Shown in pieces: positions 15,700 through 38,836 of a stretch of 64,000 nt of DNA (the stretch's first letter is position 1; each line of letters begins with the position of its first letter). The position numbers were made by a program, and so were the translations under genes. The notes under the pieces are model-generated. The model saw nothing but the letters and a program-made list of their open reading frames with translations, was not told the origin of the DNA and searched no databases. The stretch is from Antedon mediterranea (Eukaryota > Animalia > Echinodermata), in contig NC_092679.1 of assembly GCF_964355755.1 (NCBI RefSeq), positions 16,599,432 through 16,663,431 on the forward strand, given 5' to 3'.

Positions 15700-15790
15700 G
15701 GTTAAATTACGTCATCGACTGCCTCGTTTTCGGGATCGACTGACTTTTTTTAATCACAACACGCATCAGAGAGCAGCCATATTATACTTC
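15700..15790 (+). promoter_or_regulatory. Probable HIF-alpha proximal promoter with CRE/ATF-like TTACGTCA and YY1-like GCCATATT
   Basis: Local rise in CpG density 290-380 bp upstream of the ATG; AAATTACGTCAT at 15704-15715; GCAGCCATATT at ~15773-15783. TSS position is inferred. Confidence 0.45.
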
Positions 15791-15880
15791 TACGCCACCA
15801 GTAAACGTTAACAATAGAAATCGAACTTTAGGCAACCGATTACATCTGTTTTTATGCTGTGATTGATTGGAACTTTTTCT

Positions 15881-15914
15881 TCTACATTCCTTAGCAGTGT
15901 TCTAAGACTGTAGG
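15881..15914 (+). promoter_or_regulatory. Iron-responsive element (IRE), EPAS1/HIF-2alpha type, in the putative 5' UTR of HIF-alpha
   Basis: UCUACAUU-C-CUUAG-CAGUGU-UCUAAG-ACUGUAGG: CAGUGU loop (15895-15900), unpaired C (15889) followed by a 5-nt upper-stem strand, one extra 3' nucleotide, and lower stem CUACAUU/ACUGUAG with a single mismatch. 165 nt upstream of the ATG, sense strand. Confidence 0.85.
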
Positions 15915-16078
15915 TACATATAGTGTTATTATTGTTACTTGTGAAGTGTTTATAAGAAGATAATTCGCCCCTGTGTTCAAGGCGCACCACGTTTGTTCTC
16001 GTCACTTCTTGAAAACTCAGACAGGCGGCGAACCTTCGCCTTCGCCCGCCAAGTAATTTTTGAGATAGATCAGGAAGA

Positions 16079-19000
16079 ATGGCTAGCACTAACACACTAT
16101 GTAATGAACTATCCCGGAATATAAATACAATGCAACCTCCTGCAAAACCAAAGAGACGGTAAGCACATTGTTTTACTAGAATACATTAGGCTAGTAATAA
16201 TTTGTACACAACTATAAATTTGGTTAATAAATATGATATTAAAATTATTATTAATTAAATAAATAATACTAATAGGGTAGGCTAGCTAGGCCTAGGCCTA
16301 TGTCGATATAAATGATGATGTGTAATAAATATTGATTGTCATAAATGAACATGTTGGTCTTTTTAGTTAGTATAGCGCTAGATACTGTAAAGTAAGTTGA
16401 GTAAACTGAAGATGATTTTTATTCTACTAGCTACTACTATCTAGCCTAAAAGGGCTACAACAGGTATTTATACAATTATTAATATCATTGTATAAATATT
16501 AATTATGTAAATGGGTGTTGAACTGGCAAGATTATGGAAGGTGATGAGCTGAAAGCATGAGATAGTCAAATGGGAAAAATAAAAATTCACATGTGTAGAG
16601 AGTAAAAATCTCAATACTAAATAGGGATAACGATGTAAAATTAAAAGTTAATATTTTTCTTGAAACAAATTATACATTGCCTGTTAGTATTTTGTATCAA
16701 TATTATAATAAAGAAAGAATTATGAAAATATGACTTGTAGTTTTCGAAATATAGGGTTTAAAACATCGCCGAAAATGATCGTTTTTAGCCACGAACGATG
16801 TAAACAAATCGCGCTCTCAGGCGACAATTGTATGAACTCGTCATTTTTCGTAAAAATAATTATATAAAATCACTGGTTTTAAGTAACAGATCTTCTATAT
16901 CAACATTGTAAAATTCAATAAAATATGATATTACTTGTTTATTATATAAAAAAGAGTGTTTATTTAACCTCATTCAAAGAATTTCAATGCATTATTTTCC
17001 CGTGTAATTGGACAGGCCTGAGAGGTGCTTCATTTGTCCAATGTGTGTCATACTGTACCTTACCATAATGCAACCCCTGCATCAAATAAGTGACTTACTA
17101 CAGTAGAGGTGACCATGATGCAACGATTTTGATAAGCATGCATTTTGACAATTTTGTTTCGTGATAAAGTATGGTGGATGGTAAAGGGACATTGACACAC
17201 CATTGTTAATTGATGTGATGTACTGTACCTTTATTTTTATTTTTTTTTACTCCTCCATCAGTAATTATTTGTAAATGATGCATCCATGACGCACCTCTCC
17301 CTGCAATCGTATACTGTAGTTGGTCAAACAATTAACAAGTTTATTAGTTAGATTCACCTGGCTATGCTTACAGTACAATATTGCTCTGTGATATGAACAC
17401 ATATTTAATCCATTTTGAACCAATTTTATCCTAATTTAGAAATTCAGAAAAACGGAAAGAAAAATCTAGAAATGCAGCCCGGTGTCGACGAGGTAAAGAA
17501 ACAGAAATATATTACGAGCTTGCTCGCCAACTTCCCCTGCCGTCAAACGTTTGCCAACACCTCGACAAAGCTGGAATCATGAGACTATGTATCAGTTATA
17601 TAAGAACAAGACAGCTTATTCCAGATACCATTGGGGGTAAGTACAATGTAATGTCTACAACACTATCAAATTAGTTTGACAAAAAAAGTGTCATGTGCCC
17701 AAATATGGTAGTGATAATACATAATCATGTCTACAGTATATGGGCACATCATATCTTTTTGTCAGAGTTTTAACAACAAGTAGAAATTCTGTTAATTCTA
17801 TAGATTACTACAGTAAGTTATTTAATGGATTCAAAATGTTATTGCCCTACTTTGGTTTTTTTTGCTTTTATTTTAATATTCTGTTTTTGTTTTTCTCATG
17901 GTTACACTACTTTAAATGTCTATCCTTGTATGGTGAATTTGTTTTGCTGTTGTTCGTTTTGATTTTAAACAAAATACTGTTTGTAGGACAAATTTATTTT
18001 TGTAATATGACCATTATAAGAAAACTCTACATAGGCAAATACTGTATTAAAAAGATGTATTGTCTCCCAACAGATTACTTTAAAAAAAGACATTAAATAG
18101 GCCATTTGCAGTTTTAATATTAGTTAATCACTTTTGTAGAAAGCTGAAAATTAGCGTTTTTACTAAAAAAGATAAAAATAAAATAAATGGTAAATTCAAC
18201 CAAAAAATCAATTGAATTCCAGTCTATTTACAGTTTTTCAGGTAAATAATTTTGTTTTTGATCCAATTTTAGATGTAAGTGAACTTCAAAATGCTGTACA
18301 GTATATACAGTAGAACAAAAACAATTTCAACAAAGGTTTTCAGGGGAACAGTATATCTTTAAGTTTGGCAATCTCTCATACTCATATAAACTAGTGTGAT
18401 GACATACAGTACATCAATTATCCTAAGGGTTTGGGCAATTTTTCATAGTGAATTATTATTCTTTCTTTGAATTGGATTGTTATAAAAAAACTGAAGGATA
18501 TGAGATAATGTACAGTGAGCATATTTGCCAATTGCATCTTACTGTATGACACAATTACAACCTACCTGTATGGTTGAAGGAAAATATCTGCCAGTGGTAT
18601 ACTGATACTAATAGTCATTAATACTATTGAGAGTCAATAGATTAGGGCACGGACTTTGCAAAATGACCACCATATCCGACATTCAAAAATATTATTTACA
18701 GTAGTACTGGATATAAAAATATTATTTACTGTACCTACAGTACGGTAGACTAAAAGCTCTGTCTACACTATCAAACTTTATGTAACAACAAATTTCATGA
18801 AATGATGACGTCATATCCTTACCATATTTAAGTACCGTATATCACTACCTTATTTGGGCCGAGGAATATCACACTCTTTGTCACTTTTCTGAAAAATCCT
18901 AAAATCAATGTTTTGATGCAATATTCTTATTTATCAAGTATCATCAGTATACAGTAATTTTACTATAAACTGCATGTCAAATGTATTTCCAAAAAAGGAA

Positions 19001-22000
19001 TTTTTATTTCTTTCTATTCTTGTGAATGCTCTATTCTACAGTAATAATAATTTTATTTGACTTATCTGCAGAGCTTTGAAGTAATTGTGTAAAACACTGC
19101 CAAAATATCTTTAACTTTCATTTTAAATTTTTTTTTGGGTTGCAACAACAGTCATGTCAGTCATTTTCTCAAAGATAAGAAATCTACCATAAAAAAAAAA
19201 ATATCATCATTATTATAGACCTCCCAGTTCCAAAGCATGTGTGCATTTTTGTCAAAACGTTGTGAATGGGTGGAAAGAACTTTATAGACAGTTAAAAAGT
19301 AGGTAGTTGACCTATGACCCAATACTCTCTATCTTTACTTGATGAATCATACTGTACCATACAGTATATTGAATATTATATATTATAAATAAAGCAAGTC
19401 AGATATTGGTTAGAATTTGCTTAATGGCACTGGTATGGCATAAAACTGTAAATTTGCAATTTTATACATTTTCTCCTTTACTATCATTTGAGCAAATAAC
19501 CAATTTTAAATAACTTTTTGAACAAATTATCCCCAATTTATTAAAAGAAACAATTACAAATTTCCGATTCAATTACAATCCATTTAACCGTTATTTTCGG
19601 ACTACCTTTTTACTGGTTATTGACGTCTGTCCTGTTTTTGCTGCCAAGTAATTAAGTGTGTAAATTTATTCGCAGTCCTTTTTTTTGCAGCAGAAACCAG
19701 TCCCTTGATAAATTATATGTCAACGTCCTTAGTGGAGGAGGTAATAAAATATACTCAATATTTTAATGATGTATTGCAAATATGTTTATCTAAATATTAG
19801 AAATGTGTATGAGAAACAAGGAGAATGATTCAAAGGCTGTGCTAGACACATTAATGGATGATTTATATATCAAGTCACTGGATGGCTTTCTTTATGTCCT
19901 GTCACAAGAAGGTGATATTGTTTACCTGTCTGAAAATGTGTGCCAGTATCTTGGGTTGACGCAGGTAATATATATTTTTATTAACTTAAACCATTTATTA
20001 AATTTAAATTAAATTAAATATCATTTATTATTGTGTCAAAAAATGTTCTGGGTCGATTATAGCTTGGTATGCCATCATGGTAACTAATTTCAGCGAAATC
20101 GGCAAGTTGATCTCTGTGGGTTGCCATCATTTTTCTTGCATTTTGTATCGGGTAGCCCAACTCATTTCATGGTATTGAAACCCTCGTAAATTTTAAACAA
20201 TGTACCTGATCAAAATATTCTTAACAACATTATTCTAACGGTATGGTAATTTAGAATTGTAAATCAATAGCTCTATTTTCTACTTCCAATTATTTCCCCT
20301 TGTCATTGCAACTATGGGTACGGTAGTACTTTTAAGTTTCTTTTTTTTAGAGTATATCATTAATTTGCAGAAGTTTCCTAATATTTAGTTATGGAATTTT
20401 TCCACGTAAAAACAAAGCCAAGCGAATATTACTAGATCTGCGAAACCCTGGTTTGACAAATAAATTGAGTTGATTGGCTATTAAAGAAACTGGTCAAATC
20501 GCTAACTCATTTTAACGTTGTTGTTCCTAGTGGGAACCAAGCTTTAAAGTTAGCTCCCGTGAATTGTATACAGTAGTTGGCTTATGTGAACCAGGCCTTA
20601 ATACAAATTTAGTTGTATGTGTGGTGAACTTTACCAGACTATATTACACTACAGTATATTTTCAACATTAAAGGATGACAATGTACAGTAACCCATTCTG
20701 GATTACAGTATATAGTCTGCTAGTGTGAACCAGTCCTTAATAATAATTTAGTTGTACAGTATGTCTGGTGAACTTTACAATACCAGACTATATTATACTA
20801 TATGTCTTAACACTTTGACTGCCAGATGTTTTTCCAGTTAGAAACTGCCACCGCCAGCGTTTTTAGCCCAATTCGATGTTTTTATTAAAGCTGATTGAAA
20901 CTATGTATGTGATCTAATTTACATGTAATTTAGACTAAAATAATCATAAAGATTTTAGCTTTACAATGGTACCAAGAACGATTTTCAAATCGCAATATGT
21001 CATTCGTAATAGTAAAATGAAAGTAACCCACTTTTTGAGTTTTTCATAGTTTCGCGGAAGAAAGTCGAGATATTCGCGATTTTGTGCAAGACATTACAAT
21101 ATGAAAATATCGCCCGGTGAGATCAACAAACAACAAAAAAGTTACTTACACGGCACCGATAGGCCTATAAAAACAAGTTATCACTCTTGAAAAATGTATT
21201 ACATTTATAAATCATAAATCTTACATCAATGTTTCGCCAAAATCCACATAGTAAAGACACCAGGCCTGTTTAACTAGGCCTAAAGTTGGTCCGGAACCGT
21301 TTTACGACTAGGCCTAGTCCTACTAGCCTAGCTAGTAAACTGATGATAATATTCATACCATTTATAAACAAGTTTGTTGCGTGAAAAGTGAAAAACCAAA
21401 ACAATTAGGGTATACGTACAATAATAATATATAAATAAATATATATTGAAAATGACTCCATTATTTTTTATTCAGATAACAAACAAACATGCCAATCCAC
21501 AAAAACCTTTGTAATGCTTCGGCGGCATAGCTAGCGCGCGACCGATACACAATGCGCCAAACCATTGCTGTACGCGCTACTGTGATGCTCGGTGTATGTT
21601 ATTTCGACAGGTACCATTTTGACAATCGTTCGTAACCAGATTAGTTACTTTCAAAAAGTAAAATATTAACGGTCAAGAGCGAATATAGTGTCCATATTTA
21701 TAGTATATACCAATAATTAACCTATCTACCGGATTTCGTAAAAAAACGCGAAACACAAAGATCTTCGTGTTTGGCAGTCAAGCGTTGTGTTTCCAGATTT
21801 GTTTGGTAGTCAAGCGTTGTGTTTCCAGATTTGTTTGGCAGTCAAAGTGTTATGGACTGACAATGTAACCCGTTATGGATTATAGTCTACTTGCTAGTGT
21901 GAACCAGGCCTTAATAATAATAGTTGTACAGTATGTCTGGTGAACTTTACAATACCAGACTATATTATACTAAATATGTCCTAACATTAATGGACTGACA

Positions 22001-25000
22001 ATGTAACTTATCTTTAATGTATGGCCTTTCTGTGAACTGTTATCTGTAACTAGGGCATTATCCAAGTATCTTGCTTTCCAATCATACAACTTAAAATCTT
22101 GGCACTATAATAATGACTCACCGCATGAGATTCTTATAAAAAAAAACCACTGCAAGTAGAACTAGTGATGTCTTAATCCACTAACAAGTGAATAGACATT
22201 GTGCGGGCATGTTCTAGAAAAATAATTATTCCACGCTTATTACAAATCACAAAATATCCTTGTTGTTATTATAATATAACAATAACTTATGGTAATCAAT
22301 TATTTTATGTTCCATATTAATTGTCAATACAACAATTGGTTTAAACAAATTTGTTGCTGGTTCAAATTCCCATTGGATTATTTGTTTGATTTATTACATT
22401 GATATGATAACAATGATAACAATATTAATGTTACAGTATATAAAGGTATTCAGTTCAAAATGAAAAACAGAAAGTGTGAAAGGAGATCAAGTTGAGTAGT
22501 ACCTGTAGCTTGGTGGTTATTACATGTTTGCCTTCCAAATCCTAAAGCCCGGCGCACACTAGAGCTTTCGGCTGAGCCAACTGGCACGAGTAACACTTGG
22601 CTCACTAAAAATTTGCCGCAAACTATGTTCGCGTTCTATCGGACGCACACTAAACGCCTTCAGTACGCGATTTTCTGATTGGATAATTACTTTAACTACG
22701 CTATACAGCACGCGCTGAAATATCATAATAAATCAGAACATGTCATGCGCAGTGGAATTTTTTAGTGAGCAGGAAGCTCACGTTCGGCGCACACTTGAGG
22801 AAAATGGCACGCGTGGCAATAAATATTAAACACGATAGATATTTTCCTCAGCGGCATGCGTGGCCGATTCCTCACGAAATCCCCGGCGCACACTGTGAGG
22901 CAAGTGCTACTCGTGGCAGTTGGCTCAGCCGGAAGCTCTAGTGTGCGCCGGGCTTTAGGTCCACAAGGTTCAATCCTGATCTACCTGTACAGTGCTAGGA
23001 TTATAAAGCTCTGTCTACACTATCAAACTTTATTGGCCAAAAAAATTAGATGTGCCAAAATATGGTATGACATCATCATGTCCATATATGGGCACAAAGA
23101 TTTGATAGTGTAGACAAGGCTTACAGTACGGTAACTCACAAGTCTAACGCCCGTATTCTTAAACCGGACTTTAGTCGTAGTTCGAAGTTCGACTTGGAAA
23201 AGTCGTAGTTCGAGCTATTACTTCAAATTCGATTCAAAAACGAAGTAGTCGAAGTTTGCAGTTCGACTTAATGAAGTCGAGCTTTTAGTCGAGTTGCACA
23301 CGTCTGGGTAACAAAGGCTATACATTGGCCAATGACAAGAGAGTATTTGAGGAGCAGACGAAATTTTGCGCATTGATATCACTTTCCATTTCTTACAACA
23401 CTTTTTACGCATCAGGACTATATACATAAAAAATAATTTTAATCGTTAATTATTAGAACAATATCAGTATTAATGTAACAGTGAAGTATATTTGATTAAC
23501 AACAAATAAAATCTTAAAAATACATTTAGGAACCATGGCGGTACGATAACTTTTATATTTTCTAGGCCCCCAACAAAGTATGATCGCCACGAACCACGCA
23601 CTTCATAGCGTGACAAGAAAGCGCTAGGCCCCCTAAACATTCCATCGCGTGGTGAATTGCCGCATCTCCCATTGTCGCTATGGCGTGACGTAGCTCAAGT
23701 CGGAATTGCGCGAAGAAAATAATGTAATTTGTATACAGTTGTAAATAAAGATGATTTTCATTATTATAATTTATACCAATGTATATTTAATTAAGCTAAT
23801 ATAAATATAGATATTTCATTCTTCAATATCTGGCCAATATAACAACTCAATGACTGTTACGTTTTTTATAAACATCGTTTAAAAACCATTTAGTCGACCA
23901 TTTAGTCTACCCCCTCCAGGACTAAAAAAATCAATCAAAATCCGTCTCGATTTAGTCGAGGTTGGCCTGATTTAGTCGGTGATTTAGTTGAAGTTCGGTT
24001 TATGAATTAAAATGACGTCATTTTTTTAGTTTTAGCTCGAACTACGACTAAAGTCCGGTTTAAGAATACGGGCGTAAGCCTCAAATGACATTTTTTAGAT
24101 GATTATAGAACATTACTATAGTTAATAGTTTAACTGGTCCATATCTACTACAAGCTTTGCTTTCTTGGTACTACTGTAGTTATCTATCTTTACCATGGAT
24201 TTTATAAAATTAGAAATAAAGATACACAAACTACAGAGTCAAGATTATTGAATGATTGTCTGTTTCAAGATTATCCAGTCAGGCTGAGGTTCTATAATAA
24301 AACAGACCTTGTTATTTTCAGATAATGTGTCCGGTTTATTTCAAATTTGAATGATTTATATCTTTACATGAAATAAACAAAATTTGAGTTATAACTTGAA
24401 AATTAAAATGGTTTTGCACATACCAAAGATAAACAACAGACTACCATTATACTATACAAATGATGAATGAATGACTTTTAAACAGAAAATATTCTCTCTT
24501 AATTCTATAATATAATATAAAACATTCATACTTGTTTTATAACGGTGCCAACACACGACGTACGGTTCTGTACCTAACTACAGTACTGTTCTAAAATTAA
24601 ATCAATTCTATTTTGATTTGAATGTTGAATGATAGGATCATAGAAATATGGCGCTCGGAATTTCATCATGGAGTACTTTAGACCTGTTCGAGCAAGGCAT
24701 ACTCTAAAGGCCTGTCTACACTATCAAACTAGGTGCAATGTGCCTAAATATGGTAGTGATATATTCCCAAATATGGTAGTGAAACACCCTTATGTCCATA
24801 TATGGGCATATCACATTTTTTTTGTCACATAAAGTTTGATAGTGTAGACAATGTATAATGTAATAATATGGATCTACAGTAAATACAGACAGGTGATACA
24901 AAATCAACCAATCAAATAATGCAAGGAGGATGCACTTGGGTGTGTGCTATCTAGATGAGACATTTGTTGATTTCTATCAAAGAAAACTTTAGTATTTGAA

Positions 25001-28000
25001 TAGACTCAATATTCAATGTGTGCGGATCATGATCTGTAGCTACAAATAGATTAGGGTGGATGTTGAATTGAGTGATGTGTGTAGGTGGAAAGATACTAAA
25101 CATAAAAACCTCACAGAGGTGGGTAGACATAGGACTAGACTATGAGGTATTTAATAAAAAGGTGAAGATTACAATACGATTTATATTGAGTAGAAGAAGA
25201 ATTTCACACTTGATCGTCATAAGCCAAATATAATTTGGATATCTCAGATTCCTACCATATTGTCCATTAGCAGGTTTTTTACAGTATCTAGGCCAGTTTA
25301 TATCTTGTATTCACACTAGGATAAAAAAACTTGGCAAATTAAGCTTTGGCTGTATATCTTGGAAAGGTGTCATCGTTCTTGACACAGTTCTAAATCCTGA
25401 ATATTACTATTGTTCACATGTTTCCTTATAGTCTTCGTTGTTGGTATTAGGAAAGATATGGGTTGAGGAGGTAGTTGTTAGGAATTTGTGGGAAGTGAAA
25501 TGCCCTATGTACTGTCATGTACAGTCATAAAAAGCACATAATTTTACAGTAAAGTCCCTATTAAGAGAACATCTTTGGACCAGTGTGTCCCATAGGGATG
25601 TTCACTAAATAAAAAAAGCATATATTTATACAGTAAAGCTCCCTATTAAGTGTACACATTCGGACCAGTGTGTGTCCTTAATAGGGCTACCCACTGAATA
25701 GGGGTTGACCATATAGTTTTAAAATATATATATTGGTACAGGAAAAGTTCTTCCCATTATAAATAGGGTGTCTCCTGAATAATTAGTGGGTGACAATAGC
25801 TTTCGTAAGGGAAAGATTTCCTTGTCCCAAAGGAGAGATTCTACTGTAGTTGATTATTAAAGAAGCATATGTAAATTTAACTTTTTTTTCTCTAAGCTAA
25901 CAACCAGCCATCTCTGGATATGAGGAAACCGGGTCTGGTACATGATAAAGCTATAACTGTATATTTCAAACTTAATAAATGTTGTGTATTTCAATTTGAT
26001 CAGGTTGAATTGATGGGCCAAAGTATTTATGAGTACACACATCCATGTGATCATGATGAGATTCGTGAACAATTAGCCGATAAGCAAGGATCAACATCGG
26101 CTTCAAGAGATCATCACAGCTTCCTCCTTCGTCTGAAATGCACTCTGACCGACAAAGGCAAAACAGTTAATCTGAAGTCGGCAGTCTACAAAGTAAGTGT
26201 ATGAAGTGATCGCTTAACAGTGGCGGAACCAGGAATTTGAAATAAAGGGAAAGGGTGTGAGTTGGGTATTGGCCTAAACATGGTAAAAATAAAGTGCTGA
26301 ACAGAGCCTACTCTGTCTTATCTTTTTCTTTGTAAATTTCAAAAGTTTTGCTGGGCCTCCTTGGACCCACTTACGGTTATTACAAATATACAGTGTGCCC
26401 TTCGAATAAGTGCCAATTCCAACATTGATTTACTATTAGGTGCTATATAAAACGGCCATTACTTGAAAATCAAAACTATTGAAGTACAGGATAATATGAT
26501 GCTTTTACTTATTTAGGCTCTCCAGTGCACTGCTCACAAAGAGTGGATTGAGACCATCAATTTGTCAACATCTGCAAAAACGTTATATCTTGTTGTCGTG
26601 GCATGTCCTATTCCACACCCATCCAACATTGAACATCCGCTGGACAGTAAAACATTTGTTTCCAGACACAACCTTGACATGACATTCACAGATTGTGATG
26701 AAAGGTAAGTTTTGACTAAAGAGGTATTAACAAATTTTTTTTCTTCAGGAATATGGTAGAAAAAAAGGATCCTCTTTTGTTAACAGCACTTTGATCCAAC
26801 CTAATATCCATGCCTATGGGCTTCTTTGCTCAGGCACCAGAGATCTGGAACCAACTTCCTCGTTCCATCCATTACAATCCATCCCCTTTTCAATTCAAAT
26901 CTCTCCTGAAAACTCACCTATTTCAATAGTTATTCTTTTCATGTTATGCTGTGAGATTCGGTAAAGAGCGCTTTATAAATGTTTGATATTATTAGAAGAA
27001 GAGGAGTAATTTTACAAACTGTTAGTAACCTGTATTCTGTCCTCATTGTACAGCCGTCTCATGGTCTGTTAATTTTCTGTCTTTTTGTCTACCATCTTGA
27101 AATGAAACTATGCTAGGGTGAACTTGTTGCTGTTTCTGTCGTCTGAACATGGCTAGCCGATTCTCGGTACTGTATCTATTTCCGAAGTATCATAGAATTA
27201 TTTGGCAATACAACATCACATGTGTTTCACATGTGATGCTGTATTACCAAATATTCCTGTGTGTGATATCTCGGAAATAGATTTATGTGGAGATAGAGCA
27301 CTGGGAATCTGGTGACACGGCTTTAAACTGAAATAGTTTCATACGTCTTGAGATTTGATAATGAACACGTTGCTATGGGCATCTTTTTTTGTATTCTGTT
27401 TATTTTATGTGTCCAATATTCAACAGCGATTAAGAATTGGCAGTTCAATGGAATAAAAGAAACTCTGGTTGTGACGTACTCAACCTTGGTTCAGTCATGC
27501 CATGAGCTGTTCATGTGACTCATAAGCATTCTGTTAAATGTTAGTCCCTAGTGAAAAAACTTTACTGCAGTGACAGGTGATGAATTGGCCTACTTCAGCT
27601 AAATCTATAGCAGTTTGTTAGACTTTGACATAATAACTCTGCTTGATCAGTGAAAAATTTAAGGCCCTATAATTAATGTGTATCAGGCATGTAGGATTGA
27701 TTTAAAGACCTATTGAACACCCTTATGTGTTCAACAAATTGTCCCCATGAGAGATGTAATTATGTGTGATATATACTGCATTGTCTAACAGTTACAGTAT
27801 ATGAAATTTCAATGTGGACAATGTTTGACTTCTTTCTGCAGAATGTATGTAGTGGCATATTTAGAGAACAATTAATGTAAATTTACACTCTCGCGAAAAG
27901 TTGGGAGGGCCCTTGGCCTATAGCCACGGAACAATAATTAAAGATGTTCAGCTTTTAATAACGTATCTTTACGCCACAAAAGCCTGATCACAATGTATTT

Positions 28001-31000
28001 CTTGGACTTTCAAATGTGTAGACTGTTTTCTATAGTCTACTCGACCAATATTGAAAACTGAAAAACAGAAACTCTTCCAAATACAGAGGTCCAAAAGGTG
28101 TTTTGTACCAATAAAAATGCATTCGGAATGCCAGACTTTGCAGAAAACCAGACATATTAGACAAACCCAAGAGTTTTTTGTATTGGCAGAGTTGTATATA
28201 AAATACTTATTTTCATAATCATGCTATATGGTGTAAACATCAATTAGTATTTATCTTTTCATCAGGCGCCTCTTAACTTTTATGGCTTTTAATTTGATTG
28301 ATTTTCTGTATTTAAAAGATGCCTTGTTGTTTTGCGTTTTTGTCCATCTCTTATTGTGTTATTGTATTTGCTGAAATAAATAGTATTATTGTTAATTTCA
28401 GAATTGAGGAGCTGTTAGGATACAATGTATCACAAGTGGAAGGTCATTCCTTTTACAAATTCATCCATGCAGGTGATAACCAAGTTGTAGAGAAGAATTT
28501 AAAGAATTGTAAGTACGCCATTCTTCAAAGTCTTCTTCACTATTGTATGGCCGATCACAGCAGAACTCGTAAAACTGCTTTCTATTGTATTGTTTTTTAA
28601 TATTATTTATATTTTTGTTTTGAGGAGCCTATTCACTACAAGCTATGCTTTTATTTATGCTCCTCCACTTTATATAAGTTATTAGTAAAGTGAAATAAAT
28701 GAAATGAAATGGTGCTGTTGACCTCCCCATTTACATACATGGTACCCCTTGGTCTAAAGGAAGTTCAGATGAGAAAGTTTATAAAAGAAAAATTCTGAAG
28801 AAAACTTTATTATTATTATCAATATGAAGCATTCAAATATAATTAGTTTATTTCAATGTAAATACTCATTGTGTTACATTACTTATTAATTTACATTAAA
28901 GATTTAATGTCTCCCAGAAAAAATAATTTGTTGAATATGCCATTTAAATGTCACATAATAGTTATCCACTTTAAACAAAAAATTTATTTATGTGAAAAAA
29001 CTGTAATTTGAAGCAAAAAATAGTCAAACTGGCTGCCAGCCAATGGGCTTTTTTGTTGAATTTACCATTTATTTTGTCATTTTATATGAGAAAACATTAT
29101 TTTTTTAATGTTTTTTTTGACAGAAGTGATTAACTTTATTAAAACTACAAAATAACCTATTCAAAGTCTGATTTAATTAATCTTCATTTTCATTTTTTTG
29201 GGGGACAATGCATCTTTAAAAAATCTTTACCTCTGAGTTTTTTTTTTCACAAAGCCATAAGTAAAAAATAAATGACATCATTGAGGACTGTTTCATAAAA
29301 TTGAAAGTTTTTGAATGAGAAGTGTGTGAATAAGACGATTTGGAAACTATGCAGTCCGATTTCGTTTCCGTCTAATGTTTTTGATACTTTCAAACAGACA
29401 TGGGGTAATTCTATCACCTCATCATTTAAATTTGAAGGTGATGAATGAATTATTTTGGAACGCTAGTATGTAACCATCTGCCGCTACTATTAAACCTGTT
29501 TTATTTATTGCTATTAATTGTTACCTGGATTTTTTCGTGATAACAAAGAGAATTAACCCCCCTAAAGCATATTATATTAAACATACCAAAGTGCGGATCA
29601 AGACCTCCTTTATAAACATTTTCACTAACACCTGCGGTTTTGTTTACAGTATATGCCAAAGGACAATCTGTGATTGGTCGATATCGGTTTCTGGCTAAAG
29701 TTGGTGGCTATGCATGGATGAGCACAGAAGCAACAATCATATACCATAACAAGTCGTGCAAACCGCAGTGCATTGTGTGTATCCATTATATGATAAGGTA
29801 TAAAATTTTTTAAAACCTCGGGGGTTCAATAACTGTGTGAAAATGATGAGAATTTGTCATTGTTCAACATCCTTTTGTACACATCATAAAGTATTACAAT
29901 GCAAATCCTTTAAAAGCAATGCTTACAATAAGCTGATTAGAAAACTTGTTTTTCCATTTTTGGTATGATATAAAACTTGACCTATATGAAATTGGTGAAA
30001 CGTCAGCAGTTGTATAGAAATAAAATGGTTGACAGTGTAAAAGGCAGGACAATGCAAGTCTAAAGCCTTGTCTACACTATCAAACTTTATGTGACAAAAA
30101 GTGTGATGTGCTCAAATATGATAGTGATATGCCCAAACGTTGTAGTGATATGACATCATCGTGTCCATATGGGCGCATCACATTTTTTGTCACATACAGT
30201 TTGATAGTGTAGACAGTGCTTAAGTGTAAAAAGGCATTATCAGTTTTTCTTTTTTTTTTATCATTTAACAAATAATCTTAACAAATGATAACCATACAAA
30301 TTAATATTTTTTCAGTGATGTAGAAAAAGAGGAGGAGATTGTGTCATTACAACAAGAAGTTGAAAATTCAAAGACAAAACCAACAGCAAGCAAACAAACT
30401 AATGAAAGTCCCTTTTTGTACTGGAGTCCACACCAGAACAAGACGAGTACGTACTAATATTATTAGCATGTGTCATATCTTCTTTCATAATTGTTTGTAG
30501 AGTTTGCAGATGGGCTGGCAATTTCTTTCTTTTCCCTTATTTACCCCAAAAGGAGTTGGATAGCCGAGTGGTTAGGACACTTGACTGTCATACAGATAGA
30601 CTCGGGTTCTATTCCCGACAACTCCCAGTCCACTCAACTGTATATGAGTACCTGGTTGAAAATACTAGGGAGAAAAAAGGCGGCGTGGAAAGGAACTGGC
30701 CACCGTACCACATAATGCCGAGGCTTAGTACAATGAGCTCCTAACAGCTTATTCCCCTACGTTAAATGAATACGGGACTCACCTTTACCCTTTTTTACCC
30801 CAAAATAAGTCAAAAACATTGTAAACATAAATTAAAATATAATACAGTCAACTCTCCCAATACCGGACTCTCCCAAAACCGGAATTCACGAAAAACCGGA
30901 CTTTTTTGGAGGGCCCAATTTGTCCCTATTCTAAATGTACTGTAATTTAATCCGGACAAATTATGAAGTACAAAACACGAAAATTAGCGTCTGAAAACCG

Positions 31001-34000
31001 GACTGACAGTTAAAAAACTCCAAATATTTACGAAAACAACGTAACATCGTCGTCGCTGACTCGGATTCAATACATTCACAATGTACAAAAGCTTTTAACC
31101 ATACCCTCACCATGCATGAAGTGCGCGACGTTTCGCGGTACGATCAAATAATGTTGCCATGGAGCACTACACTGTGATTGACAGGTCAGTTCATTGTTAA
31201 CCCACGAGGCGGCAATTGTTGCGTATCGAACTGCGGTGGGCTTTTTCACATCGAAGCGCTACGTCTTAATGTCTATTGTTTTTAACAGGGAGTTGTTAAC
31301 AACTCCCTGTTTTTTAGCATATGAATTGTTTTTTAATAAAGTTCAATTTACATTCCACTTTGTGTCTTTGTTTTGTTTAAATTATTGTTAAATTCACAAT
31401 TGCAATAGGACTTTAAAAAGGAATGTTTCACTAAAAATGTGCATCATTATAAATTTGGAAATCATTATGGCAAAACGTAAACAGAATGAACTTGACTTAA
31501 CTAGTGTTAATAAACTTTGAAATGTTACCAATTAATTATTGTGTCATTATTGCTTGGCTCGTTTACCTAATCAATTTTCATCATTGCTATCAAATTACGT
31601 CAAAATAAAGGAGCTTAAAAAACATGTGGTCTAGGTGTGGGCGTTTTTATTTGATTATGACACCTCTGCACATGCGCATCACTCAAAGCCCTTCACCCAT
31701 GCTGCTGCTGCTGCTAGCTAGCTCACGAAAAACAATAAACAGACCGAAATTATGTTCACCGTACGTACGTAGGCCTTTTTGCCGTTAAAAACACATTGAG
31801 AAACAATAATTTACTATTGTAACATGTTTTATTGGTACAGTAAATAATGTAACTTTTAAAAAAGGTAAATTGAATTAGGCCCTAGCTTAATATTAATAAA
31901 GTAGGCCTAGGCCTATCAGTTTATTTAAGTAAAACTAGATTGACACAATCATAGCCTAGGCCTTCCCTACGCTAGGAGACAGTACCGGGCAGCATTCGGA
32001 CCGATGATTCAAAGCATTTTCAGTGACAACGTGATGACTTTAAAAATATGTTTTCAGGAAACCGGACTTTCGAAAAACCGGAAAATATATGCCTGCCCAA
32101 GGGTGTCCGGTATTGGGAGAGTTGACTGTATATCAATGGAAGGGCTAAAAAATAGTCAAAACTAAGTTCAGCCCCTAAACACTGAGGACTAAATAGTTAA
32201 TAAATAAATAATTAAGCGCAACCTTTCTAAACTCAATATACTTTTCTTTTCTTTCAGAACCATAGACTAACATAATACTTGAGATAAGATAGTTAAGAAA
32301 TGACTTAAGTTAAAAAGCGAGGCTTTATTATGAAACCTCTCTTTTTATCTCATGAAATAGATTTTGTCGTAGATTTCAGAAAAAAAATACATAAAAATAA
32401 TTATTATCTTGGGTTATATTCAAAATCATTGACTTAAAGCATGCAATGTTAAGATTATTCTAAGCAATTTGATAAATCAGAACCCAGGTGTGTATAACCC
32501 ATCTTAATATAATACTGTCTGAGTGGCTGAACTATTGCTTGTCAAGTTTGCATTTAAGTTATTAATAGAAAACAACTTTGTTTAACATGAGGAATCTGGA
32601 TTTGCGGTTAACAGATTAGAATTTAGTACGAGTGACCACTCCTAGTGTTGCATTCAAACTAAAAAAGAAACCAATGTGAATCGAATGTTATTGTAAAAAA
32701 AACATTCTTGTGTCTGAACAGGTGCTATGAGGTTTCATGCATGCTTTTTACTTACCCTTGATGCTGTGTGGTTTTCTGTGTGTTTACACTCATTAAAACG
32801 ACATGTTTTATGTATGGCTTTTTCACCTGTACCACACTGTATGTAAAATGTAAGTCCTAGTGTATATAAAAAAAATGTTGATAACAATTTTTGTTTTCTT
32901 ACTACAGTTGAGTTGGATCCTAATGAACTAGATTCACTGGCGCCCACACCTGGGGAAGAATTTGTGCCACTTTTCAGTTCAGCGATGAAAGGTTTGTGAT
33001 TTTTTTAAAATTTCAACTTCCCACTAAGATGTAAATTAGTGAGAGATGGTGGTAAAACCTCTAAAACAGTCAAGTCACATTTGTATTATTATTTATTTAT
33101 ACTGAAGGGGCTGTGTGTGACAGTGGCTTTGTGAGTGAACTAGTACACCAGGGTAAACACTACTCGTCTCAAAAGATGTACTAGGTTTTTAAAGTGTACG
33201 TGAGCTAGATGTGTATACTGTTTAGTCCTTATCCGAGAAGAATCGTTCTACCACCAGAACCATGGAGCGAGTGAGCCTTGAACCATGGAGCGAGTGAGCC
33301 TTGAACCATGGAGCGAGTGAGCCTTGAACCATGGAGCGAGTGAGCCTTGAACCATGGAGCGAGTGAGCCTTGAACCATGGAGCGAGTGAGCCTTGAACCA
33401 TGGAGCGAGTGAGCCTCGAACCATGGAGCGAGTGAGCCTCGAACCCTTGTTGATGTTATGGCTATACAGTTACAGTTCCATTCAGCCACTTACTCGCTTC
33501 TTAATGGAATATTAAGATTATTGATACAGATGGTATGCTGTATTTTGGAGTTTTCCTTTGGTCATTAAGCAAATATTGTTGTATGTGGAGATACAGCACT
33601 GAGAATCTGGTAATTATCACCGTAGCTAACATAACATAATAATACAATCATTACTTAACTTTCGTTTATAGATGGTGAGACGTGTTTAAGCAGAGAAGGA
33701 TCTGTAAACTACTCCGATATGATGGATGGTCTTGGTGATAACTTTATGGACTTCAATCCATTTGCTCCTATGGATTTTGAGAGTGAAGACAAACAGATGT
33801 CACCACAGGTAACATAATATTCTTCACATAACTACAGTGACAATGACAATACCAAGTGAAGTGATTAAGCTCTGTCTACACTATCAAACTAGTTTGACAT
33901 AAAAAGTGTTTTATGCCCAAATATGGTAGTGATATGGCCAAATATGATTATGATATGCCCAAATATAGTAGTGATATGACATCATCATGTCCATATATGG

Positions 34001-37000
34001 GTACAGAGCTTTAATTACAAAGGTTTCTTATATTACATTTTATGTTTTCCTTGTATAACAGGAAGTAAACATTGACCAGGACCAAACTGATATCCTTCCT
34101 AAGAAAGACCAGATTGTGTCAACAGAACAATACATATCAATTGAGGTGAGCCACCGGATTTATTTAAGCTAATTAATCATTATTGCAGTATTCTATGTAT
34201 CGCAACCACAAACGTTTTTTTTTCATGCACTTCCTGGAAGGAGACATACATTTTCCTTTATAGATAATTTTTCTGTTTTAGCTAAATTGAGATTTAACAG
34301 AGCGGTCTAGCGCATTTTAACCCAAAAAACCCTTATATACCCATGCCATTTCTAATAATAATAAATGAACATTTCTATAGCCCCGATATCCTCCACTCAA
34401 GCGGCACCCATGGTTCATATAATGTTACATACTGAAAACTATTAGGGGTAAAATTACATAGATTGTACCTCTTGAAGTACTACTGAGTTATAACACGGTA
34501 TCGACTCAGATGTATAAGATAGTTTTAACTGTTCACTCAAGCACTTAACCTGGTCGTATGGTAGCTATAGCATTGCATAAAAAGAGTTAAATTAAGTATG
34601 TGTAAACACAGCTGTAAGTGACATGGTAGCTATAGCGTTGCATAAAAAGTGTTAAATTTAGTATGTGTAAACACAGCTATAGTGACATGGCAGCTTAAGC
34701 GTTGCATAAAAAGAGTTAAATTTAGTATGTGGAAACACAGCTATAAGTGACATGGCAGCTTAAGCGTTGCATAAAAAGAGTTAAATTTAGTATGTGGAAA
34801 CACAGCTATAAGTTAAGTTGGGTGAAAGTGGATGAGGTAAACTGTAACCGGAGGGTGTTTTTTATTTTACCCAGCCAAAGAGTCCAAATACCATACAAAA
34901 ATACAATACATACTCCAAGCAGACACTTGGCTCAATAGTAATGCTTACTCTTGCCAAGAGGAATTGGCAGGCATATACCTAGACCTAGGGATTGTCATTA
35001 GAAAATTGAAACCCTGTATCTGATTTGTAATAGGATTCAAACATGGATGAGCTTGGCATGAATGCGCCTCTAATTCTAGATGAAGAATGTCAGTTTACCA
35101 CCGACATGTTGACAGACTTGGATGGAGTATGTTGGAACAGTTGGAAGGAGGTTAATCCATTTTCTCTTCCTATGACGTAAGTCTCCCATTCCCACAATTT
35201 ATTTATTTTTTAATTTTTTTCCAAACACAAAATAATACCCAGCCAAAGAGCCCAAATACGGACTTGGATGAAGTATGTTGGAACATTTGTAAGCCTGTTA
35301 TCTGTTTTCTCTTCGTACAGTATGACGTAATATAAGTCTGCCATTTCTCCCACCCCTATAATTGCAAACAAAATAATTCAATGACATTATCACCACTAGT
35401 AGTGTAGTTGTAACTCGGTGGATAACATGCATACATGTGTAACTGTGCTATAATCCTTGCTTGAGTATAATTTATGCTAAGCTTAGACACATGATTTGAA
35501 ATGCAATCCAAGTATAATTCAACCCCCTAATTTACTCCATATTCATACCCAGGCCTCATTGTCATGTGCAGTAGCTTATCCACCACCAAAATTCTGAGAC
35601 ACAGTCAACAGTTCTTCTTCCCCATCTCTTCTCTGTAACTACCTGCCTAATTTATATCAGTACCTTCATTTAACAAGTAACCCATCTTTTTCTGTTACAA
35701 AATAAAGATTTATTATTAACCTGCCTTTTTAGTTTACATTAATTTAACATAATTTCTTCCACCTTTTTGTACCTTTAGGGCATTCATGTTTTAGATATAC
35801 AGTTATTTATCAAGTGAAAATTATTTGTTATTTTATTGCAGGGGGTCTGTTGAAGACACTGTTTGTGAGAGAGCTAATATCATGCCTGATACGCCATATA
35901 TTGACCGTTTGAATACTTCTTTGAGTAAAATGACTGGTTTAAGTCGGAGCATGCCAAACATGTCGGTTGGTCCTGCAAGTACAAAGAACGATGACTTTTC
36001 AAGACCAATTCCAACTCCTGATATTGCCACCAACCAGATGTTCTCACCAGATAACTGTCTTGGGATCCAACAGAACATAAGTGATCAAAGAAATATTCCT
36101 CCAGATATATTGCAGGAACTACCAGGATACAATGGAATACAGGCATCACAAACAGCACCCAGACAAATGACTATGCAAGAATTGCAGATACTATCGCCAA
36201 CACCACAGATGGAATCACAAATCTCACCCCAGCCATTGTTGATGTTATCACAGATATCACCATCACATACGTTATCACAGGTCTCCTCACAATCACCACA
36301 GATGCCATCAAAAATATTTCAGACCACACCACCACACATGTTGCTGAAAACATCAAAGCCACAATCATCTTTGACATCACCACAAATGTCACCGGTCTTA
36401 AGACAACTGCCATCAGAAGGCTCACCACTAATTTCTCAGATCTCAACAGGGCAGGTTTCACCAGTGCCGATCATGTCACCAATTATCTCGCAACAAGGGT
36501 CTCCAATCATCTCACAACAAGGGTCACAGATCGTTCCTCCGTCGGTACTCTCTACATCAACATCCGGAATGATGCTGTCGTTTCCTTATTTTCTGTTGAA
36601 CTATCAATCGGAAAAAAGACCTTGCCCGGATCGGAAAGCAAGCGCGAACCTACCACAATCAGACTTAAGAATACTGAAGCGCAAAATTAGCATTGATGCT
36701 AACCCAATACAAGCTAAATTGTTCGCAAAAGCAGCTAAAAATAAAGAGACATTGGTGAAAAAAGAACGGGAACCAAATAAAAGGAATTGTCCTATTGGTG
36801 AGTATTGTGTTTTGTATTCAAATTGTATTATAATGGTTACCCTATGTTTGAGAAGAAGTCGGTTAAAAATTAATTAATTAATTAAGTTTGTCCCTTGAAA
36901 CACAAAAAATGGAAAAAAAAATATTCTAAATTTAAATTGGCCATATCAAAGTAATATTAAAGTTATTCACTTTAAGTCGAAAATTCGAGCCAAAAACAAC

Positions 37001-38836
37001 AATTTTACGTAATTAACAGGTAAATTAATTAGATTACATTTCATCTGGGAAATCGTCGCAAGCGAAAGTAAATAAAGATTGCAAACCATGAGTATGCATT
37101 ATGCATGATGCTAATTAGGATTGTTTACAACTTGTCACGGTTGAGAAGGTGTTTTCACACAGATCGCAAGGAAGTTTTACATACAGAGTAGCCAAATAAG
37201 TGCGTTGCATTATGAGATATGTTTTGATTGAAAACTTTGACTGGAAGTCAAAGTTATTTTTTGAACAAAAAAACTGTATTTTGGTTAAATTATTTTTTTT
37301 TTCCACTAATTTTTTGTGAAAGTTAATAACTATTATGATACTTCAAAATGACCCACTTTTTTTCAAAATTAAAAAAAAAATTTTTTTTGGAATTAGTCAA
37401 AGGGACAATACATCTTTAAATAATAATAATGATAATAATAATAATATTCGTTCTTATAAAGCGCTTATTGCAGAATGCTTCTAAGCTTTATTTTTTTTTC
37501 ACATATGTAAAGCATAGTAAAGTTGTGTCTTGATTTATTCCGGTTACCCATTTTATATACTTGGGTGGAGAGAGGCAAATGTAAGTAAAGTATCTTAAAG
37601 GATACAAGCAATGCAGCGAGAGTTGGATTCACAATCAGTAATGCAACGTCCAACACACTGTGCCAAACACACTTACAAATAATAATAAATGTTTCTGTTT
37701 ATTTTTTTAGATAAACAAACTGTGAGTACAGTAGACTTGAACGCATGGGCAGATATTCGTAACCAATCAGAGTACAGCACAGTCGGTAGCAATCTTACTC
37801 ATTCAAAGCTGTTACAACAAGTAGCCATGAAAGCGGTATGTGAGGAAAATGTTACTCTCTTTTTTTTTTCACTTTTTAAGCTAATTTTGTATTAACATGA
37901 CATAAATAAGTTTGTAGTCTCTGCTAAAACAAGGCCATCGCAATCTCAAGTTAGTGTTTACCAACCACCCGACCAACCAACCGGTTGTGAGGAAAATGTT
38001 ACTCTCTTTTTTTTCTTCACTTTTTAAGCTAATTTTGTATTAACATGACTTAAATAAATTTGTAGTCTCTGCTAAAACAAGGCCATCGCAATCTCAAGTT
38101 AGTGTTTACCGACCGCCCGACCAACCAACCGACATAGTGAGCTGTAGAGTCACGTTGCATGTGACTGAAAACACTAATACTGCTCCAAAATCTAAAATAA
38201 ATAAATAAAAGGGCTCCAAAAATTACTCATGCATGCAAATTTAATACATTTAATAAATAATAACCAAATAAAAAAAAAGGCCAGCATTAGATTTGATTGA
38301 ATTTCTGAATTTTTGGGCTCTGCCACAACAATTGGTTTAGGTTGATTTTGTTCATGAAATAATATCAACTCGGGTGTCAATACCAATATGGTGTGCATTC
38401 TGGTGTGAGTTTTGGTAGGCGATGTGAAGGGTATTGAGCGCTGTCTACACTATCAAACTTTATGTGATAAAAAAAATGTGATGTGAGCATTGGGCACATC
38501 ACAGACTAGTTTGGTAGTGTAGACAGAGCTTTAGAGATGTGCTAAAATACTATCAGTGTTTTCATTATGATTTATTTATTTTGACAGTAATAAACAATTT
38601 ATTTTTTACTTCTGATATGATAGAATGAATCATCAAAGAACACTCCACGTTCACCACCTCCATCATTGTTCAGCACAATGTCGATTGCGAGCCTCATCAG
38701 CTCGTCTTCTCAGCTTGACTCCATACCGCTGATCAACCAATACGATGCCGAGGTAAACGCACCTATCACCTCCTCCTGTCTGCTCCAAGGGGATGAACTT
38801 CTCAAAGCTCTTGACCAATCAAAAGGGGACAATTAA
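16079..38836 (+). CDS. HIF1A: Hypoxia-inducible factor alpha subunit (bHLH-PAS; invertebrate pro-ortholog of HIF1A/EPAS1), about 981 aa
   Basis: Exons 16079-16158, 17440-17636, 19801-19964, 26004-26192, 26517-26704, 28402-28508, 29650-29797, 30316-30446, 32908-32991, 33672-33808, 34062-34145, 35034-35176, 35842-36797, 37711-37835, 38624-38836 (2946 nt, frame consistent). b[36 protein letters not shown]; [36 protein letters not shown]; [29 protein letters not shown]; [13 protein letters not shown]; CODD-like LGMNAPLI; [27 protein letters not shown] second in-frame ATG lies at 16130. Confidence 0.95.
18053..18358. mobile_element. Kolobok-like MITE (short family), degraded
   Basis: AGATGTATTGTCTCCC at left and GGGGAACAGTATATCT|TTAA at right; related copies at 28900-29215, ~8975-9170 and ~52535-52810. 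Confidence 0.6.
20586..22010. repeat. Tandem ~140 bp repeat (3 copies) interrupted by a DNA transposon
   Basis: GTGAACCAG(G/T)CCTTAATA..AGTTGTA..TGGTGAACTTTAC..CCAGACTATATTA at ~20586, ~20725 and ~21899. Confidence 0.85.
20811..21849. mobile_element. piggyBac-like non-autonomous element (~1.04 kb)
   Basis: TTAA|CACTTTGACTGCCA at left and TGGCAGTCAAAGTG|TTAT at right (14 bp perfect TIR); 31 bp subterminal repeats at the right end; no transposase ORF. Confidence 0.75.
22545..22955. mobile_element. Palindromic MITE inserted in a tRNA-SINE head
   Basis: TA|AAGCCCGGCGCACACTAGAGCTT..GGCTGAGCCAACTG and its inverse ..AGCTCTAGTGTGCGCCGGGCTT|TA; removal restores CCTTCCAAATCCTAGGTCCACAAGGTTCAATCCTGA, matching the SINE at 57031. 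Confidence 0.9.
23148..24074. mobile_element. PIF/Harbinger-like non-autonomous element
   Basis: TAA target duplication (23145-47, 24075-77); about 38 bp perfect TIR CGCCCGTATTCTTAAACCGGACTTTAGTCGTAGTTCGA; subterminal TAGTCG repeats. Confidence 0.88.
26800..26995 (+). mobile_element. 3' end of a CR1/L2-type LINE
   Basis: 26834-26929 translates [31 protein letters not shown], the WNxLP..FK..LKTHLF C-terminal motif of L2/CR1 ORF2, followed by an L2-like tail GTAAAGAGCGCTTTATAAAT. Confidence 0.75.
28900..29215. mobile_element. Kolobok-like MITE
   Basis: TTAA|AGATTTAATGTCTCCCA ... GGGGGACAATGCATCT|TTAA. Confidence 0.65.
30557..30795 (+). mobile_element. tRNA-derived SINE with a Nin/Deu-like body
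   Basis: A box TAGCCGAGTGG, B-box-like GGTTCTATTCCC, body GTCCACTCAACTGTATATGAGTACCTGG..AAGGCGGCGTGGAAAGGAACTGGCCACC, tail GGGACTCACCTTTACC. Domain assignment is from recall. Confidence 0.75.
30845..32128 (+). mobile_element. pogo/Tigger-like (Tc1/mariner superfamily) internally deleted DNA transposon
   Basis: TA duplication (30843-44, 32129-30); 24 bp perfect TIR CAGTCAACTCTCCCAATACCGGAC; subterminal AAACCGGA repeats; residual transposase-like start [11 protein letters not shown] at ~31467. Confidence 0.88.
33105..33490 (-). mobile_element. tRNA-derived SINE (Meta-like) containing an internal minisatellite
   Basis: Minus strand: A box TGGCTGAATGG, B box GGTTCGAGGC, then GGTTCTGGTGGTAGAACG..CTTCTCGGATAAGGAC body shared with 6940-7195. 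Confidence 0.7.
33257..33445. repeat. Minisatellite, 23 bp x 8
   Basis: GAACCATGGAGCGAGTGAGCCT(T/C) repeated with period 23 from 33257. Confidence 0.97.
34558..34813. repeat. Minisatellite, ~65 bp x 4
   Basis: ATGG(T/C)AGCT..AGC(A/G)TTGCATAAAAAG(A/T)GTTAAATT..GTATGTG(T/G)AAACACAGCT at 34558, 34623, 34687 and 34752. Confidence 0.95.
36888..37415. mobile_element. Second copy of the Kolobok-like element at 12864-13410
   Basis: Co-linear high similarity over ~530 bp; right TIR AAGGGACAATACATCT|TTAA intact, left TIR truncated. Confidence 0.9.
37421..37670 (-). mobile_element. tRNA-derived SINE with CORE-like body and (TAT)n tail
   Basis: Aligns with the copy at 50126-50432 (CCGGTTACCCATTTTATATAC..GGGTGGAGA..GGCAAATGTAAGTAAAGT). 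Confidence 0.8.
37839..38131. repeat. Tandem duplication of ~147 bp beginning at the HIF-alpha exon 14 donor
   Basis: TGTGAGGAAAATGTTACTCTCTTT..GTAGTCTCTGCTAAAACAAGGCCATCGCAATCTCAAGTTAGTGTTTACC..CCGACCAACCAACCG at 37839 and 37986. Confidence 0.92.

Follow-up and report, generated by a model that had tools for sequence, protein, structure and literature searches.

In mice, IRP1 represses the translation of HIF2alpha through an iron-responsive element (IRE) of the EPAS1 mRNA, and both iron and hypoxia turn IRP1 into its cluster-bound form, by which translation is released (PMC4112806). Iron deficiency also stabilises the HIF protein, and the literature explains the HIF-2alpha IRE as a means of matching both erythropoietin output and iron absorption to the available iron (PMC4112806). 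Conservation of IRP1, including the residues that contact the IRE, extends as far as sponges (PMC7034838). Invertebrates possess one HIF-alpha, and the vertebrate paralogues derive from genome duplications (PMC5470732). Our reference for comparisons was Table S1 of PMC8466369, which contains 38 classic IREs and in which matches were counted by hand; all five EPAS1 rows of this table come from jawed vertebrates. In the literature searched, where subscription papers were mostly beyond reach and a prior mention is possible, EPAS1-type IREs were found described for vertebrates only. For an invertebrate HIF/SIM-like transcript, the sponge “HIFa/SIM-like 3” mRNA, S5 Table of PMC7034838 gives one SIREs-predicted IRE in the 5' region. 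It differs from the element described below, being rated as low quality, with a non-canonical loop (class 15) and an upper-stem mismatch, and being located ~1.6 kb before the CDS with no likeness to the EPAS1 IRE. This prediction is not a prior report of the crinoid element.

The sequence of the window (the whole 64-kb stretch of Antedon mediterranea DNA that was analysed) contains a transcribed EPAS1-type IRE candidate, located in the leader of a crinoid HIF-alpha gene and likely orthologous to the vertebrate element. A preliminary description of this DNA had placed a hairpin at 15881-15914 of the + strand, and its letters were found there exactly as written. The hairpin consists of the following elements:

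15881..15914, + strand: candidate EPAS1-type IRE hairpin, recognised from its sequence, its fold, a SIREs-type scan and the hand comparison with Table S1 of PMC8466369
15887/15908: U x C mismatch of the lower stem, followed by the U7-A pair
15889: bulged C8 (C15889), left unpaired by both the centroid structure and the SIREs-type scan
15890-15894 with 15901-15906: upper stem of five pairs, with one extra 3' base
15895-15900: loop, CAGUGU

All five structural IRE features set out in Volz 2021 (PMC8466369) are present in the crinoid hairpin. At the sequence level, C15895 and G15899 provide the C14-G18 cross-loop pair, the recognition triplet A15-G16-U17 occupies 15896-15898, position 19, where U or C is the rule, is U15900, and the upper helix has five pairs with one 3' bulge, as is allowed in EPAS1 and DMT1. 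The hairpin sits on the sense strand, in the 5' UTR of a spliced contig (one contig) and 5' of the ATG. The SIREs rules were re-implemented for the two canonical loops (rules from PMC2896125) and, as the preliminary description had suggested checking, they picked out the hairpin as a canonical-type match, with the bulge n20b:C, one G.U, no mismatch and 5/6 lower-stem pairs. As for the extra 3' base that the same description had equated with the human one, one such base is present as in human, but it is not the U annotated as bulged there. In crinoid, zebrafish and Xenopus, A12 needs this very U as its partner, hence the unpaired base would be the adjoining C (n20b) or the loop-adjacent U. Judging from the six sequences compared, the U that is annotated as a bulge in the EPAS1 IRE would be a paired base in fish, frog and crinoid.

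The gene downstream of the hairpin was then identified from its coding segments:

16080..38833, + strand: crinoid HIF-alpha coding span, 14 tblastn segments of protein P0001 at 86-100% identity
17440..17636, + strand: exon 2, encoding the bHLH domain (Pfam bHLH_HIF1A), 100% identical to the Antedon mediterranea protein P0001 (981 aa)

This 981-aa protein comprises a bHLH domain, two PAS domains and a C-terminal transactivation domain, with PF23171, PF00989, PF08447, PF14598 and PF08778 above the Pfam cut-off. In a midpoint-rooted tree of 35 rows covering the N-terminal 400 residues, P0001 and the HIF-alphas of sea urchin, sea cucumber and hemichordate form a group (99/94) that is separate from the vertebrate HIF1A/EPAS1 clade (97/88), a placement that fits an origin before the vertebrate duplications. 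The NPAS/trachealess rows adjoin the vertebrates on a very long branch, a placement treated as an artefact. Both its domains and its grouping with HIF-alpha make the host gene a member of this family. A short, interspersed, MITE-like high-copy repeat with inverted ends is found at 13825-13953, 17660-17760, 18741-18792, 22993-23124 and 24694-24858, that is in at least 5 copies around and within the HIF-alpha gene, and has very high depth in all four runs. Two further elements in HIF-alpha introns, 22541-22959 and 23141-24081, carry long inverted repeats at their ends (65 nt at 94% and 45 nt at 96%, respectively) and are likely non-autonomous DNA transposons. The upstream neighbour is a BTB-domain gene (2270-about 15275, + strand, Pfam PF00651), which we take to be BTBD7-like. 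A contig of run X1 at 14429-15275 is probably the 3' UTR of this gene and ends ~490 nt before the HIF-alpha contig.

The structure of the 5' end of the HIF-alpha transcript is given by one X1 contig of 1269 nt, together with motifs of the genomic sequence:

15707..15769, + strand: putative core promoter, read by eye
15765..16158, + strand: HIF-alpha exon 1, with a ~315-nt 5' leader and the first 26 codons, from the X1 contig
15854..15862, + strand: minimal uORF Met-Leu-stop, the only ATG of the leader, 18 nt before the hairpin
16080, + strand: start ATG, with A at -3 and G at +4
16159..17439, + strand: intron 1, GT..AG, 1281 nt

The contig is unbroken over 15765-16157, joins 17439/17440 across GT..AG and continues past exon 2 into letters matching exon 3. 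Unique X1 cover is absent from intron 1 and from ~15275-15765, two regions that run X2 covers without any joint. X1 was taken as RNA from the GT..AG joint and the missing intron cover, in this single contig. Since the spliced contig spans the hairpin, the latter belongs to spliced exon 1, where it occupies contig positions 116-150, i.e., 116 nt from the contig 5' end. The preliminary description had considered that its reading would fail if transcription started downstream of the hairpin or if the hairpin was spliced out, and neither is seen in the one RNA contig. The distance of 165 nt that it gave from hairpin to ATG is correct, and the ATG at 16080 starts P0001, whose residues 1-27 map to exon 1. 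A second in-frame ATG lies near 16131 in exon 1, and a start there would give an N-terminus as long as in other HIF-alphas. Within the putative core promoter, we take TTACGTCA at 15707-15714 to be CRE-like and TCAG at 15766-15769 to be initiator-like; the contig 5' end coincides with this TCAG and is the end of an assembled sequence rather than a mapped cap site. The uORF could modulate scanning into the IRE. The runs show no variants of the hairpin among them, an uninformative result in that exon 1 variants are sparse. As a separate observation, tandem AG acceptors and a pyrimidine tract can be read in the hairpin 5' arm (15873-15897), and a GT resembling a donor comes after the hairpin (15914-15919). 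An isoform devoid of the IRE is conceivable, and the X1 contig shows no such joint.

Comparison with the EPAS1 rows carries most of the argument. The human EPAS1 IRE quoted in the preliminary description is that of NM_001430.5 70-104 in Table S1 of PMC8466369, and the match of 25/30 claimed for it was reproduced by hand count. By the same count, the 30-nt crinoid core matches Xenopus at 25/30, Takifugu and Latimeria at 26/30 and zebrafish at 27/30, and is thus closer to zebrafish, coelacanth and pufferfish than to human. Over 35 aligned columns, hand counts give 26-28 matches with the EPAS1 IREs and ~10-19 with the other IRE classes, each taken from one representative (FTH1, TFRC b and c, ALAS2, SDHB, ACO2, FPN1, DMT1 and CDC14A, with FTL left out). 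The crinoid hairpin has the loop, the C8 bulge, the five-pair spacing and the sense-strand UTR location in common with the classic IREs (FTH1, FTL, TFRC, ALAS2, SDHB, ACO2, FPN1, DMT1, CDC14A; RF00037, RF02253), whereas its stem sequences are unrelated to theirs (~10-19/35, hand count).

With the EPAS1 IRE it shares C8, the CAGUGU loop, the one extra 3' base of the upper stem and, at the top of the lower stem, a mismatched base that faces a C. The shared position of this mismatch had been reported in the preliminary description, as had the compensatory C-G to U-A change, which is indeed seen on both sides of the upper stem relative to the Table S1 rows. Only three core positions differ from zebrafish, namely the two members of this C-G to U-A upper-stem pair and the base at the lower-stem mismatch, where the crinoid has U for A. 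A12 and U20 of the crinoid hairpin already occur in zebrafish, whose IRE is arranged in the same way with respect to G.U and bulge. The pair at the base of the lower stem, just beyond the core, is G-C or G.U in vertebrates and C-G in the crinoid, both sides having changed. All differences between the crinoid hairpin and EPAS1 IREs preserve the structure, the one at the mismatch falling on an unpaired position. The upper stem is weaker than that of the human element, with three weaker pairs. The distance to the mRNA 5' end is also similar and both elements lie upstream of a HIF-alpha ORF: the hairpin occupies 116-150 of the X1 contig and vertebrate EPAS1 IREs range from 70-104 (human NM_001430.5) to 146-180, with zebrafish NM_001039806.2 at 112-146. 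Further differences from the EPAS1 IRE are that the crinoid host is a non-vertebrate, pre-duplication HIF-alpha and that a competing fold is predicted in the crinoid leader.

Chance was evaluated in several ways. The hairpin is the only SIREs-type canonical match in the 64-kb window on both strands (128 kb). Shuffled windows gave 0.28 SIREs-type matches per strand, i.e., ~0.0014 per 315-nt leader, and none of 60 shuffles gave a match without mismatch and with an equally good lower stem. The probability of finding a 25/30 match to human anywhere in the window by chance is ~1e-6. The best other match reached 19/30 among 818,050 control 30-mers, drawn from both strands of the window and of 76 related loci (the best 80 of 221 stretches). 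Moreover, given an IRE, the identity to human of 8/11 free 5'-arm positions has a p of ~0.001-0.008. A degenerate pattern covering the crinoid and vertebrate IREs had 0 matches in 596 Gb of prokaryote genomes, and is therefore specific; the match of the same pattern in the window itself is circular and was left out of the evidence. Taken with the core identity of 25-27/30, the 26-28/35 columns against ~10-19/35 for other classes and the best control of 19/30, these sequence comparisons make it very probable that the crinoid hairpin and the vertebrate EPAS1 IRE share common descent. The element would then date to the deuterostome ancestor.

The distribution in other animals was analysed through a protein-based scan, in which 76 loci represent the best 80 of 221 HIF-related metagenome stretches. 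A bHLH match was present in 63 of the 76 loci from these best 80 of 221 stretches, most of them being short genomic pieces without exon 1. The EPAS1-type element was found in 0/76 loci (best 80 of 221 stretches), none of which gives an invertebrate deuterostome leader. Three SIREs-type matches upstream of a bHLH were found in this set (best 80 of 221), two in locus L022 and one in L066, and none is EPAS1-like. No IRE was found in the leaders of 14 mRNA-like contigs from other animals (108-473 nt, possibly incomplete), and the eight of them that were included in the tree all fell elsewhere than with the deuterostomes. Likewise, a pattern of non-vertebrate variants, which excluded the vertebrate C-G pair, had 0 matches in metagenome contigs. 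The preliminary description had dated the control of HIF to before the vertebrate duplications and had spoken of invertebrates. The presence of the element on a pre-duplication HIF-alpha in a crinoid fits such a date, but the claim has to be narrowed to deuterostomes, given the 0/76 other loci (best 80 of 221). The evidence supports “deuterostome” and not “invertebrate” at large, with conservation apparent from sequence comparison with vertebrates alone.

Folding and covariance searches bear on the activity of the element. The preliminary description had proposed the Rfam IRE models as a check, and here the hairpin falls short: scored on the crinoid sequence alone, it obtains 15.5 bits with RF02253 (IRE_II) against a gathering score of 30 bits, with an E of 6 in 316 nt. 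The IRE_II alignment is full-length, with the extra base as an insertion, and an Rfam search of 4 kb gave no IRE match. Folded alone, the hairpin adopts the stem-loop given above, with an MFE of -6.8 kcal/mol, a stability that is unremarkable (z -1.1; 31/200 shuffles fold as well). The strict hexaloop form (G13.U20, C bulged) has -1.3 vs -6.3 kcal/mol for the seven-base-loop form. Weak IRP1 binding was described for IREs with unstable upper stems in a yeast three-hybrid preprint (10.1101/524991). In the leader context, ViennaRNA predicts the IRE pairs with a probability of only 1-15%, because a competing hairpin is favoured:

15894..15935, + strand: predicted competing hairpin (ViennaRNA), in which sequence downstream of the IRE would pair with its loop and 3' arm

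In five contexts, this hairpin is predicted to be favoured over the IRE fold by 1.9-3.3 kcal/mol, and when the simulated temperature is lowered to 15 C, one upper-stem pair reaches a probability of no more than 0.17. The predicted gap of 2-3 kcal/mol is no larger than the model's error or than what a protein that drives refolding could overcome. The energy of the cross-loop motif is absent from the model of ViennaRNA. This C14-G18 motif contributes 1-3 kcal/mol, and the ferritin IRE binds IRP1 at about 30 pM (PMC8466369), an affinity that is enough to shift such a folding equilibrium.

Cap-distal IREs repress less. The crinoid hairpin could be homologous to the EPAS1 IRE and yet weak or inactive, being mostly sequestered, too cap-distal or kept for another protein or function. 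We consider this explanation unlikely. The competing hairpin favoured by 2-3 kcal/mol would agree with it, as would the three upper-stem pairs weaker than in human and the 116 nt from the contig 5' end, cap distance being of importance for IREs (PMC8466369). However, 27/30 positions, with compensatory changes among the rest, would not have survived in a dead element from the echinoderm-chordate split onwards, G.U and bulge are arranged alike in the zebrafish IRE, and the cross-loop motif (1-3 kcal/mol) and the ~30 pM affinity of IRP1 could shift the equilibrium.

An independent origin of a functional IRE in crinoids, in which case the iron-HIF link would not be ancestral, appears quite improbable. 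Convergence was proposed for some IREs (PMC3708341, citing Piccinelli and Samuelsson), and among the 83 IRE-like rows of Table S2, of which only the closest-looking one was counted, an unrelated human IRE-like sequence reaches about 21/34 with the crinoid (hand count). A different, ferritin-like hairpin was also found upstream of a mite HIF-alpha, in locus L022, whose HIF-alpha has 88% identity to proteins of Sarcoptes and Blomia in the bHLH exon:

8273-8306 of L022, + strand: candidate IRE-like hairpin with C8, a CAGUGU loop, one 3' C bulge and an extended lower stem

A putative ATG is located ~210 nt downstream of this hairpin, in a first exon that would join the bHLH exon in frame. The hairpin is the sole mismatch-free one with a good lower stem among 12 SIREs-type matches in 695 kb (best 80 of 221), although it was picked after the fact, and its Rfam IRE_I score of 16.7 bits is below 34. 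Its stem is unlike that of the EPAS1 IRE; around its loop, by eye, 13 bases in a row are those of the Penaeus ferritin row of Table S2. It is a possible independent IRE on HIF-alpha. Against an independent origin in crinoids, IRP recognition fixes only C8 and the loop and leaves the stems free to differ among classes (10-19/35), so that convergence leaves unexplained why the stem letters recur together with the lower-stem mismatch and the extra 3' base, a rare feature.

Still less probable is that the IRE likeness is incidental, arising by chance or from a splice signal in which the 5' arm serves as a pyrimidine tract and AG acceptor. The stretch 15873-15897 does resemble a 3' splice site, and behind the hairpin comes a donor-like GT, but the X1 contig reads through, with no joint and no loose end among those listed, contigs being known to drop rare transcript forms. 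Furthermore, a chance match has a probability of ~1e-6 per window, and a splice signal leaves the 3' arm unexplained. Finally, the insertion of an EPAS1 fragment through an assembly artefact or vertebrate contamination, suggested only by the high identity to fish sequences, is largely refuted and scarcely credible, as no difference appears in a contig covering 14429-16222 from a DNA-like, seemingly independent run, crinoid exons 2 and 3 follow the hairpin in a spliced contig that comes from another study, and the hairpin carries changes absent from all five vertebrate rows.

The reading that we favour, and regard as rather probable, is that the crinoid hairpin is an EPAS1-type IRE, inherited from the common ancestor of echinoderms and chordates, through which IRP1 damps HIF-alpha translation when iron is low. 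The preliminary description had combined an EPAS1-type IRE with iron/IRP control of HIF: sequence, structure and position in a spliced leader agree with the first, while the control by IRP is what we infer. By analogy with the mouse system, binding of IRP1 and translational control in the crinoid are reasonably probable. Under low iron, cluster-free IRP1 would bind the C8 bulge and the AGU loop and damp HIF-alpha translation. When iron is plentiful, or when hypoxia stabilises the 4Fe-4S cluster, IRP1 would act as an aconitase and HIF-alpha synthesis would be released. Such damping would offset the stabilisation of HIF that iron shortage causes via the iron-dependent prolyl hydroxylases. The repression is probably partial in the crinoid, because the hairpin is >100 nt from the apparent cap and its upper stem is weaker than the human one.

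On balance, it is rather probable that iron-sensing repression has acted on HIF-alpha translation through one IRE since the deuterostome ancestor, kept in crinoids and EPAS1 and lost from the other vertebrate paralogues. The wider proposal, in which such repression is ancient and also recurrent in animal oxygen sensing, a ferritin-type IRE having been recruited independently in mites, is improbable as a whole. The mechanism itself is already known, and what would be new is the age and origin of the translational link between iron and HIF. An orthologous element in a crinoid implies that this switch is older than HIF-2alpha itself and than erythropoietin-driven erythropoiesis. Therefore, its first role was likely at the level of the cell, keeping an iron shortage, by which the prolyl hydroxylases are inactivated, from being read as hypoxia. 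The EPAS1 IRE would become an ancestral feature of HIF-alpha retained by one paralogue.
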